A stretch of 62,509 nucleotides of DNA from Candidatus Omnitrophota bacterium (GTDB lineage Bacteria; Omnitrophota; Gorgyraeia; Gygaellales; Profunditerraquicolaceae): assembly GCA_011620275.1 (NCBI GenBank), contig WOZK01000007.1, positions 1 through 62,509 of the forward strand, written 5' to 3'. The notes beneath the pieces are model-generated. The model saw only the letters and a program-made list of their open reading frames with translations, searched no databases and had not been told where the DNA came from. Both the position numbers and the translations under genes were made by a program. The number at the start of each line of letters is the position of its first letter. Position 1 is the stretch's first letter. Positions 13,849-21,495 of this stretch are shown here, one piece after another.

Positions 13849-14978
13849 ATGATTAAACGAATACTGGAAGAAAATATTATCCAACAAACCTTCCGCGGCC
13901 AAGTTTTAATTATTCAAAGCCCCCCGCCAGGTAGGGAAGACAACCCTTGCGTTGAACGTTACTAAGTCGCTCAAAAGCAAAATGGATATCAGGATTTTTA
14001 ATTGCGACGATCCCGACCATCGCGCTATTTTAGAGAACAAGGGGTTAGAAGCGTTAAAAAGCACCGTAGGCGGTGCCAAACTCATTGTTATTGACGAAGG
14101 CCAGAAGATTTCCAGCATCGGGCAAACCTTAAAGCTTTTAGCGGATTACTATAAAAATATATCCAGATTATCGTGACTGGTTCTTCGGCCATAAATCTTT
14201 TGGACAAGACGCAGGAATCTTTAACAGGCCGGAGAAGAATTTATACATTATATCCTATTTCTGCAGAAGAATCTTCAAAAGGCGCTGTCCCCTCAAGGAA
14301 AAGGTTGGAGTCGCTGCTCGTTTATGGCAGCTATCTGCATGTTATTACCAGCAGAAGGAAACAGGACAAAGTCGATATTCTTAAAGAACTAAAAACAAGT
14401 TATCTCTATCGCGACGTTTTTGATCTTCAAGGAATGAAGAATGCCGATGTGTTTATGAATCTTGTTAAAGCGCTGGAATACCAGATTGGCAACGAGGTAT
14501 CTTATCGAGAGCTTTCGAATTTACTTAAGATCAGCTATGCGACCGTGGAGCGATATTTACATATTTTGGAGCAGACGTTTATAATATTTCATCTACCCGT
14601 TTTTAAACGTAACAAAAGACGAGAGCTTTCCAAATTAAGAAAGATTATTTTTACGATGTCTGCGTCCGCAATGCCGTTATTAACAACTTTAACCCTATTG
14701 ATAAAAGAGACGACCTCGGCGCGTTATGGGAGAATTTTATGGTTGTCGAACGGATGCAATACCGTAAATATCATCAAATCGGGGCTAATCAATATTTCTG
14801 GCGTACCTACGATGGCAGCGAAGTCGATCTTGTAGAAGAGCGTGAAGGTCGTCTTTACGGCTATGAATTCAAATGGAAACCACGGCAGTATCCACAGGTA
14901 CTTGCGAAATGGAATGAATATAAGGGGAGTTCATATCAAGTTATCACGCCAAGCGAAATGAGAGGATTTGTTCACTAA
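13849..14978 (+). pseudogene. AAA_14/DUF4143 ATP-binding protein, multiply frameshifted
   Basis: Pieces in different frames: MIKRILE.., PRQVGKTT (Walker A), IVIDEGQ (Walker B), VTGSS, ESLTGR, LWENF, FWRTYDGSEVDLV..EFKW. Confidence 0.85.
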
Positions 14979-20097: not shown

Positions 20098-20182
20098 TTG
20101 CCGGTCCAGGGGCATACGCGGGCATCCCGATAGACAACGTTCTTTTATCGAAACAGGATACACTCAAAGCGAGGAGGACTGT

Positions 20183-20632
20183 ATGGGAAGAACGGTAATA
20201 AGCAGAAGGGATGTGCAGAAAAGAAGCAGTTGTCAGGTTCTCGGAGCAGGAGGAAAAACGGAGATGTTAGCCGCCGGTATAGAGGCGGATGCCGCGAAGG
20301 AACCGGACAAATATATGTCCCGTCTCATCAAATACATCCCCGGCGAGATAATAGCCCTTTACATCTATCTGGAAACGGTCGTCCGTTCCCTGCCCCAGAA
20401 CGAGACGCTGTATTGGTCTGCTTTTACTTTTTGTTTTCTGGCTACACCGCTGTATTTGTGGCGCAAGGAGAAGGTGAGTAAGAAATTACAGTTGTTGATC
20501 TCGACGGTTTCCTTTTTCGTGTGGGTCTTCGCCGTCGGCGGGCCTTTTGCGTCTTTAACCTGGTATAACGCGGTTTACGGGGTGATAGGGCTGCCGGTTT
20601 ATACTTTCCTGGTCTCCCTGGTGGAAGCTTAA
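20183..20632 (+). CDS. Uncharacterised 4-TM membrane protein
   Basis: RBS GAGGAGG; polar ~40-aa N-tail, then YMSRLIKYIPGEIIALY and four hydrophobic segments. Confidence 0.85.
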   Translation: MGRTVISRRDVQKRSSCQVLGAGGKTEMLAAGIEADAAKEPDKYMSRLIKYIPGEIIALYIYLETVVRSLPQNETLYWSAFTFCFLATPLYLWRKEKVSKKLQLLISTVSFFVWVFAVGGPFASLTWYNAVYGVIGLPVYTFLVSLVEA

Positions 20633-20653
20633 CAAATTATTCAAGGGGACGGC

Positions 20654-21439
20654 ATGAAGACAATCAAATGCATTTTTATTTTGGGATTAGTTTTCCTTGC
20701 CGGGTGCGCGACCGATCCGCTTACGAGGGCATTAAAAACAAACGGCTTTTGCCCTATTCTTCCGATCCCCGAGAAACAGGGGCTGGGGAATGTTTACCTC
20801 ACCTATTCTTTGAATTCTCTCCCGGTGGTTTTTATAGACGATATTTTCACCAAGGAAGAGAACGAAAAAACGATGGCCGATTTGAAACAGAAGATTTACC
20901 TGCCCGCGTCCTCGGGCGAGAAGACATTTTCACTGGCGGCGAAAGCGGATGTTATAGGCAAAGTCGAGGGGGCGCTTAAAGTTTTACGCGTGAAGAAGTT
21001 CAAACTTAGATTGGGCGATGTTTATCAATATAATCTTACCGAGGACCGGCTTGAAAATGTGATATTACCGGCAATAAGAAGCCGGAAACCCCGTTTGAAC
21101 CTCAAAGACAGATATATCGTATTGGCTTTGCTTCAAGCCTCGAGCTTGGAATATGAGCTTATTGATGAGAACGATAACAAAATTGAGATCGCTCCGGGGA
21201 GTGAGATAGAAAAGATCGTAAAGAACAGCTTAAGCATTGAATGGAAGGCCAACGAGCAAAGCAATCTTGTTATCGACCGTCCTTGTTTCCTGGGTTACAA
21301 GGTCGGCAGGATCATCGAAAAAGGCGGTTTTTATACCGTCAAAAACATAGGTTTTCCGCTTCAGGGAAGCAACGGAAAGCTGAAAGTCCGGGCAATACCG
21401 GCCGAGGAACTGCGCAGGCTTCTGCGCTCCAACAATTAG
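20654..21439 (+). CDS. Gasdermin-like lipoprotein (bacterial gasdermin fold with lipoprotein signal peptide)
   Basis: MKTIK + hydrophobic core + LAG|C18; mature CATDPLTRALKTNGF resembles bacterial gasdermin N-termini; further colinear blocks RYIVLALLQASSL, EIEKIVKNSLSIE and FLGYKVGRI; similar length; manual comparison only. Confidence 0.72.
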   Translation: MKTIKCIFILGLVFLAGCATDPLTRALKTNGFCPILPIPEKQGLGNVYLTYSLNSLPVVFIDDIFTKEENEKTMADLKQKIYLPASSGEKTFSLAAKADVIGKVEGALKVLRVKKFKLRLGDVYQYNLTEDRLENVILPAIRSRKPRLNLKDRYIVLALLQASSLEYELIDENDNKIEIAPGSEIEKIVKNSLSIEWKANEQSNLVIDRPCFLGYKVGRIIEKGGFYTVKNIGFPLQGSNGKLKVRAIPAEELRRLLRSNN

Positions 21440-21495
21440 TTTCCGGGAAGCTTTATTTCTTTGCAGCATATCTTTATTAAGGAGAGAAGACAACT

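Follow-up and report, generated by a model that had tools for sequence, protein, structure and literature searches.

The bacterial gasdermins (bGSDMs) characterised to date are described, in the available portions of the literature cited here, as cytoplasmic proteins that carry a palmitoyl group and are activated by a protease encoded next to them; the palmitoylated residue is an N-terminal cysteine (Johnson et al., 10.1101/2021.06.07.447441; PMC13475620). In Gammaproteobacteria, bGSDM-like proteins fused to cytolysin-type Ig-like domains are not encoded with a protease and are read as toxin-like in the accessible text of PMC10153256. Other described systems combine protease genes with different effectors: trypsin genes neighbour Trypco1 or Trypco2, and caspase genes neighbour an alpha/beta hydrolase, in the part of Kaur et al. 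(PMC7159879) available, while Pepco, EACC1, MBL and alpha/beta hydrolase proteins are presented as death effectors licensed by cleavage in the corresponding part of Evans et al. (PMC12642450). Here we analyse a two-gene locus in a 62,509-nt stretch of DNA from a Candidatus Omnitrophota bacterium (contig WOZK01000007.1; hereafter, the window), which invites comparison with all of these systems. Its two open reading frames (ORFs), the first of which belongs to what we call the four-transmembrane (4-TM) family, are as follows.

20183..20632, + strand: ORF1, a member of an unnamed four-helix membrane family that has no Pfam, PADLOC or PHROGs model (ORF list, homologue alignments).
20654..21439, + strand: ORF2, a lipoprotein-type gasdermin homologue of 261 aa (profile matches, structure model).

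We propose, as a tentative reading that is plausible but falls somewhat short of probable, that the locus is a cassette of two independent membrane-permeabilising effectors that were jointly acquired. It would be a small accessory cassette, carrying two different effector genes without a dedicated activator and gained or lost as a block in one genus. ORF2 would be a gasdermin that has moved to the envelope, its signal peptide preceding the Cys that is palmitoylated in cytoplasmic bGSDMs, and it would be held inactive by a C-terminal strand-helix, probably until a loop is cut. ORF1 would span the inner membrane with four helices and hold a basic N-tail in the cytoplasm; it most likely damages that membrane once the tail is removed or released. 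Gating by the ORF1 tail and pore activity of either protein are putative, as would be any cooperation between the two.

ORF2 is a gasdermin homologue. Taken alone, it matched the PADLOC bGSDM model weakly (E 1.2e-3). Its family emerged when a profile of seven close homologues was searched against 1.84 billion proteins: 71 representative clusters were recovered, 57 at E <= 1e-10. An alignment, A3, combined 57 of the 71 cluster sequences with ORF2 (58 in total), 14 short fragments being left out. The PADLOC bGSDM model was matched by 28 of these 58 members, with a best E of 5.2e-11, and the A3 profile found the solved bGSDMs 7N51, 8SL0 and 7N52 in the PDB at E 8e-6 to 6e-5, over profile positions 21-229. 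Structure prediction agreed. An AlphaFold2 model of ORF2 built with A3 reached a pLDDT of 87.4 and a pTM of 0.83, as against 59.3 with only the seven sequences. When this model was compared with the PDB by Foldseek, bGSDM chains took the first six places (E 1.7e-8 to 5e-5), and animal gasdermins came next. VIA-align placed model residues 19-258 on residues 8-253 of 7N50, with 200 residues aligned, a Z of 11.4 and a root-mean-square deviation of 5.0; Z was 10.1 to 7N51 and 9.9 to 7N52, and the top 24 rows of the VIA ranking were all gasdermins. The agreement of profile, Foldseek and VIA results upholds the original prediction that the second gene is gasdermin-like. The model divides the mature protein into three parts.

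20708..21322, + strand: core resembling the gasdermin pore-forming domain, aa 19-223 (AlphaFold2 model, VIA alignment).
21323..21376, + strand: variable, low-confidence loop, aa 224-241, the least conserved part and a putative protease-accessible linker (pLDDT, column identity).
21377..21436, + strand: C-terminal strand and helix, aa 242-261, with a conserved ..IP..ELR.. motif (AlphaFold2 model).

In the loop, pLDDT fell below 50 at residues 226-238, and column identity was 0.51 for residues 221-240. Beyond it the model has a strand at 243-247 and a helix at 250-260, and the structural alignment extends to residue 253 of 7N50; judged from the model, this strand-helix may correspond to the short C-terminal peptide by which bGSDMs are autoinhibited. 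ORF2 thus resembles the bGSDMs of known structure (7N50, 7N51, 7N52; 10.1101/2021.06.07.447441, PMC10153256) in profile homology, in fold over nearly its whole length, in having about 240 mature residues with an N-terminal Cys at the aligned position, and in ending with a flexible loop and then a short segment at the position of the inhibitory peptide. The C-terminal extensions of two longer family members, P0041 and P0024, gave nothing significant against the PDB, and we found no gasdermin-like gene on plasmids or in viral contigs.

ORF2 departs from the bGSDMs at its N-terminus.

20654..20707, + strand: lipoprotein signal peptide, aa 1-17, and lipobox Cys18 (codon 20705-20707) (sequence, PDB profile alignment).

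The protein begins MKTIKCIFILGLVFLAGC, a signal peptide with the lipobox L-A-G-C. Cys18 is kept in all seven close family members, and a strict lipobox pattern was matched by 49 of 75 family sequences, the rest being, by eye, mostly N-terminal fragments or near-lipoboxes. The assignment of ORF2 as a lipoprotein is supported by these sequences. In the profile-to-PDB alignment, the lipobox Cys falls on Cys4 of 7N51. Because a lipoprotein signal peptide stands ahead of this aligned Cys, ORF2 is predicted to be exported and lipidated by Lgt and LspA, both of which are encoded in the genome (92.5% complete) together with one Omp85 protein; LolA was not found in it. The bGSDMs are cytoplasmic, whereas a signal peptide with a lipobox is conserved across the ORF2 subfamily, and the same residue that is S-palmitoylated in the cytoplasm would here be lipidated by Lgt after export. 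We found no description of an exported or lipoprotein gasdermin subfamily, such as these 71 clusters, in the literature searched: neither the 2021 preprint (10.1101/2021.06.07.447441) nor the 2026 Science Advances paper (PMC13475620) contains 'lipoprotein', 'signal peptide' or 'periplasm', and the 2023 pore-structure preprint (PMC10153256) contains neither 'lipoprotein' nor 'periplasm'. At least 71 clusters with a lipoprotein signal directly before the same cysteine suggest that gasdermins can form their pores from the side of the envelope as well. The subfamily also bears on the idea, set out in the accessible text of PMC10153256, that gasdermins used for self-killing arose from toxins directed against other cells.

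ORF1 has a polar N-tail of 50 residues followed by four hydrophobic segments, of which helices 1 and 2 are only moderately hydrophobic.

20183..20332, + strand: polar, basic N-tail of ORF1, aa 1-50, predicted cytoplasmic (alignments; 10 Lys and Arg residues).
20333..20623, + strand: membrane core of ORF1, aa 51-147, with four hydrophobic segments and the motifs TP.Y.W and ST.AF.VW..A.GGPF.

Counts of Lys plus Arg were 10 in the tail, none in loop 1, five in loop 2 and none in loop 3. Since these residues all lie on one side, a four-helix topology with both termini in the cytoplasm is predicted. Hydrophobic segments and charge distribution thus agree with the four transmembrane segments and polar tail first read from the sequence. 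In the tail, a variable linker joins a conserved extreme N-terminus (MGR.V..) to a conserved D.Y..R..KYIPGE; the tail may be a gate or cleavage region. The same plan runs through the family: members share the extreme N-terminus M-G/S-R-R-I/V and a linker whose length varies, helix 1 is preceded by D.Y..R..KYIPGE, and helix 3 contains ST.AF.VW..A.GGPF. Among 41 members scanned, Pfam gave no consistent match (six unrelated single-member matches) and PADLOC none at all; PHROGs matched neither ORF1 nor its relative on a viral contig, and the nearest Atlas clusters to ORF1 are unnamed. Nor is the family among the ten effector families named in the accessible part of PMC12642450. We found no fused or longer forms of it, which is weak evidence.

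What suggests a function for ORF1 is the company its relatives keep. A metagenome scan for the 4-TM family gave 56 loci. Five share 94% identity or more with the window; the other 51 are divergent and form 32 clusters at 70% identity. In 19 of the 51 divergent loci (11 of the 32 clusters) the immediate neighbour is a Trypsin_2, CHAT or Peptidase_S8 gene, a count to be read with the fact that many contigs are short and that flanks of at least 800 nt on both sides were present in only 29 of the 51. The neighbourhoods take several forms. In one, an EAD1-trypsin gene occurs with EAD1-VMAP, an AAA_5 MoxR-like ATPase and WD40 or FGE-sulfatase proteins; in others, the partner is a TPR-CHAT, a kinase-EAD8-trypsin, a TPR-S-trypsin or a subtilase. 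On a Fischerella plasmid (AP018301.1) the order is EAD1-trypsin, 4-TM, EAD1-VMAP, AAA_5 and FGE-sulfatase, and on a Bradyrhizobium plasmid (CP126019.1) the 4-TM gene adjoins the gene for a CHAT protein; these two plasmids offer model operons for the family. At one metagenomic locus (L024:851-4228), genes for an MBL-fold hydrolase, a CHAT protease and a 4-TM homologue lie in a row, which sets the 4-TM homologue beside a published type of protease-licensed effector, the MBL hydrolase of PMC12642450 as described in its available portion. One protease is flanked there by two candidate effectors. Most of the neighbouring proteases lack any hydrophobic segment and are presumably cytoplasmic, as would fit a cytoplasmic N-tail as their substrate.

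Judged by genomic position, then, the 4-TM family looks like a further protease-licensed effector. Its relatives share a slot with the Trypco1/2 (Pepco), EACC1, MBL and alpha/beta hydrolase effectors described in PMC7159879 and in the accessible part of PMC12642450, namely the place next to EAD1-trypsin, CHAT or subtilase genes, vWA-MoxR/VMAP operons included. They differ in having four predicted membrane helices, whereas Pepco is a beta-barrel and EACC1 has one transmembrane helix, and in showing no sequence match to a named family; the window, moreover, differs from such loci in having no protease. Trypsin-like, CHAT and subtilase proteases would then have, in this unnamed family, a further kind of licensed effector, one that is polytopic. 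Because relatives in other phyla occupy the effector slot beside trypsin-like (often EAD1-bearing), CHAT and subtilase proteases of NTP-dependent conflict systems, we regard ORF1 as a candidate tail-gated effector. Of the roles first suggested for ORF1, that of a second pore effector with the polar N-tail as its gate is the best supported; the protease neighbours in 11 of 32 relative clusters speak for it and the lack of a protease in the window speaks against it.

Some neighbourhoods of the 4-TM family are of other kinds. Homologues adjoin dCTP-deaminase-like (DCD) genes at L016:3369-6103 and L012:201-1142, and at the first of these a tyrosine integrase gene lies directly upstream. A set of weak relatives (L048-L055; 25-29% identity) is always found beside TctC-like and Asp/Glu racemase genes and may be a different small membrane family; these loci are included in the count of 51 but were given no weight.

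Close spacing of two genes on one strand is nothing unusual on its own. Here, because both genes have real homologue families and are jointly present or absent within the genus, we take the pair to be more than chance. The unit that comes and goes has been defined as follows.

20098..21439, + strand: presence/absence unit comprising the intergenic leader and both genes; the whole block is missing in a same-genus genome (G541).

The pair is carried by the window genome (G000) and by G115. In G541 the site is empty: the YjbQ stop is followed by about 55 nt and the SemiSWEET start, and a 1.34-kb block is missing. Contigs of G540 stop at both block edges, and in G539 the region was not found. Within one genus, therefore, both genes form a single presence/absence unit. 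RNA-library contigs that share about 91% identity with the window connect the two genes in three of the four runs compared: in X4 and X6 they extend over YjbQ as well as the 4-TM and gasdermin-like genes, and in X1 they cross the junction of the last two; such contigs may include DNA and are no proof of a single transcript. The single indel unit within the genus and the bridging contigs together favour some linkage. In the X1 and X6 contigs, 52 other letters replace 10 nt just past the gasdermin-like stop (window 21438-21449), a site that is also the right edge of the presence/absence block.

Outside this one genus the picture is different, and the proposed two-family module did not hold up as a conserved one: the pair is not found there. 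The gasdermin-like hidden Markov model had a match next to none of the 51 divergent 4-TM loci and only at the five near-identical ones, and the 4-TM gene neighbours none of the three divergent gasdermin-like loci (L002, L003 and L094), the contexts of the gasdermin-like gene having been seen for four lineages only. At L003 the neighbours are peptide deformylase and DUF6515 genes, and at L094 they are GGDEF and DUF362 genes. At L002 (4820-10384), which belongs to a different genus within the family, the gene upstream of the gasdermin-like lipoprotein encodes a DUF900 alpha/beta hydrolase that carries a membrane anchor at its N-terminus, and the gene downstream encodes a 1158-aa TPR-CHAT with a signal-peptide-like N-terminal hydrophobic segment (residues 25-43); going by these sequences, the trio could be an extracytoplasmic protease-effector system. 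In a sample of 401 genomes of the phylum, the 4-TM gene occurred in two and the gasdermin-like gene in five, three of which lack the 4-TM gene. A further match to the gasdermin profile, in G352, lies within a radical SAM/SPASM gene and was removed as spurious. The gasdermin-like gene is present in four of 204 genomes of the family and in two of five of the genus. YjbQ-based synteny in other genera, where none of 21 loci had a SemiSWEET, 4-TM or gasdermin-like gene within 1.5-kb flanks, was uninformative.

The caution attached to the RNA-library contigs is one of several points that weigh against a cassette of two effectors, and most of the others concern its activator. Over about 12 kb in each direction from the pair, no protease gene is present. 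The architecture is therefore non-canonical, as had been suspected: bGSDMs have an adjacent caspase-like, CHAT, trypsin or subtilisin gene, and here neither a protease nor an NLR-like gene stands beside the pair over that distance. The genome's sole CHAT protein is a core gene, present in 56 of 61 genomes of the family, and is not specific to the cassette. Trypsin_2 (HtrA/DegP-type) gave no match in the 92.5%-complete genome, whereas the same search was positive in 12 of 14 control genomes. With no protease nearby, CHAT confined to a core gene and Trypsin_2 not found, a protease-licensed mechanism would have to operate here without a visible activator. Among the relatives, 21 of the 32 4-TM clusters showed no protease neighbour; among the closest ORF1 relatives from outside the genus (L012-L018), a protease neighbour is present only at L013; and a 4-TM homologue of 36% identity lies on a phage-like contig (L111:1570-5474), near terminase, SSB, replication and RelE-like toxin genes, with no protease. 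Likewise, a protease is nearby in just one of the three divergent gasdermin-like loci, the TPR-CHAT with the DUF900 hydrolase at L002. Finally, ORF2 alone scored 13.5 bits against NCBIfam NF051890 (prok_gasdermin), far under the cut-off of 100, and matched no Pfam family. Because this curated cut-off is missed while homology appears through the profile and the relatives, we place ORF2 in a divergent subfamily of the gasdermin superfamily and do not treat it as an equivalog.

Two candidate links to a protease were considered and set aside. The CHAT protein of the genome is a 701-aa CHAT-TPR encoded on contig 26 (L063:370-3748), downstream of sigma-factor-like and anti-sigma-like ORFs; as a core gene in that setting, it was rejected as a specific activator. 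Common ancestry of the TPR-CHATs found with the 4-TM gene at L013 and with the gasdermin-like gene at L002 was also rejected, their identity within the CHAT domain being 26%. A search of the genome for EAD1 was uninformative, since its control gave no match.

The most novel of the other readings, and itself a doubtful one, is an envelope-side gasdermin system, in which the lipoprotein-anchored gasdermin attacks a membrane from its periplasmic or outer face and the 4-TM protein is an inner-membrane gate or an immunity partner. If it were true, the membranes under attack would be either the producer's own, in a pyroptosis set off from outside the cytoplasm, or those of a cell that is prey or host to these small-genome Omnitrophota. 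The aligned Cys would then be a residue that switched, in evolution, between S-palmitoylation in the cytoplasm and lipidation by Lgt.

It is quite unlikely, in our estimation, that the locus is an antagonism cassette, with the exported gasdermin as an outward weapon against prey, hosts or competitors and the 4-TM protein as an immunity factor or resistant membrane partner. ORF2 is indeed predicted to be exported rather than cytoplasmic and has no protease partner, and exported, proteolytically activated CDC-like pore formers are used in antibacterial antagonism (PMC11952106, in the portion available). The cassette is also variable within a single genus, a typical trait of toxin-immunity loci. 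An immunity gene, however, should travel with its toxin across lineages, and the 4-TM gene is missing at all three divergent gasdermin-like loci; its relatives adjoin proteases without hydrophobic segments and never, in 51 loci, a gasdermin-like gene, which is unlike an immunity protein. No secretion system or targeting domain is encoded nearby, and ORF2 keeps what the model suggests is a bGSDM-like C-terminal peptide, as if activation were still needed. This last feature also distinguishes ORF2 from the Ig-fused bGSDM-like proteins, which it resembles in having a gasdermin-like pore-forming domain without a co-encoded protease: ORF2 has no C-terminal beta-sandwich, is a lipoprotein and retains the short C-terminal segment.

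We give similarly little credence to a protease-free, two-membrane autolysis, in which the 4-TM protein, as a holin or gate, triggers or joins the envelope gasdermin so that both membranes are breached in abortive infection or programmed lysis. The 21-nt linkage, the ribosome-binding site of each gene, the single indel unit and the bridging RNA-library contigs are all compatible with it, as are the predicted inner-membrane position of ORF1 and the predicted export of ORF2. The combination of a small polytopic protein of the inner membrane with an adjacent envelope lipoprotein also recalls a phage holin and spanin cassette. The families do not co-occur outside the genus, however, neither protein has a holin, spanin or other match in PHROGs, and no endolysin or phage gene lies nearby. 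The gasdermin fold of ORF2 differs, too, from the architecture of spanins.

A last alternative, equally improbable, is that there is no death function and no coupling, only a non-lytic envelope lipoprotein of gasdermin fold and an unrelated small membrane protein brought together by chance insertion: the surroundings are of housekeeping type without defence or mobile-element genes, and homologues of each family occur among housekeeping genes (L003, L017, L018, L094), but all solved proteins among the top 24 structural matches are pore formers, both families are sporadic (gasdermin-like, 5 of 401 in the phylum and 4 of 204 in the family; 4-TM, 2 of 401), and 4-TM relatives on plasmids, on a phage-like contig and beside proteases follow patterns typical of conflict genes.

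The two genes of the candidate effector cassette are read from the same strand, ORF1 (149 aa) and ORF2 each starting with ATG and being separated by 21 nt (20633-20653). Each has its own Shine-Dalgarno-like sequence.

20171..20177, + strand: Shine-Dalgarno-like GAGGAGG, 5 nt 5' of the ORF1 ATG (read from the sequence).
20643..20649, + strand: Shine-Dalgarno-like AAGGGGA, 4 nt 5' of the ORF2 ATG (read from the sequence).

The ORF coordinates and these two sites match the arrangement originally described, two same-strand genes with a 21-bp gap and a ribosome-binding site each. The flanking genes were likewise correctly named. Upstream, 19678-20097 matches UPF0047 (YjbQ family; E 2.7e-31), and a cupin gene also lies on that side; downstream, 21496-21759 matches PQ-loop and MtN3_slv (SemiSWEET-like; E 3.6e-12 and 4.8e-10) and is followed by a DUF2284 gene. 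Promoter and terminator scans did not rise above shuffled sequence (6 against 3.7 +/- 1.9, and 4 against 3.9 +/- 2.2), and nothing was found by them in the 21-nt gap. We also considered a foreign origin from GC content: the gasdermin-like gene has 0.435-0.465 and yjbQ about 0.55, but the value for SemiSWEET is just as low, and there is no clear signature.

For about 12 kb on either side, the genes are of housekeeping type: amylases, MscS, two SPFH proteins, a DtxR-like repressor, an ArsP permease, a deaminase, a nitroreductase, a two-component system, GreA, Fur, ZnuABC and SpeDE. Over the same distance there is no protease, defence or mobile-element gene, and no endolysin, phage gene, secretion system or targeting domain. 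In a same-genus relative (L001:7185-7706), an additional 173-aa ORF lies between SemiSWEET and DUF2284, an ORF that the window lacks. Elsewhere in the window, at 13952-14832, AAA_14 (74 aa) and DUF4143 (220 aa) are encoded in consecutive ORFs, which look like one split ATPase gene.

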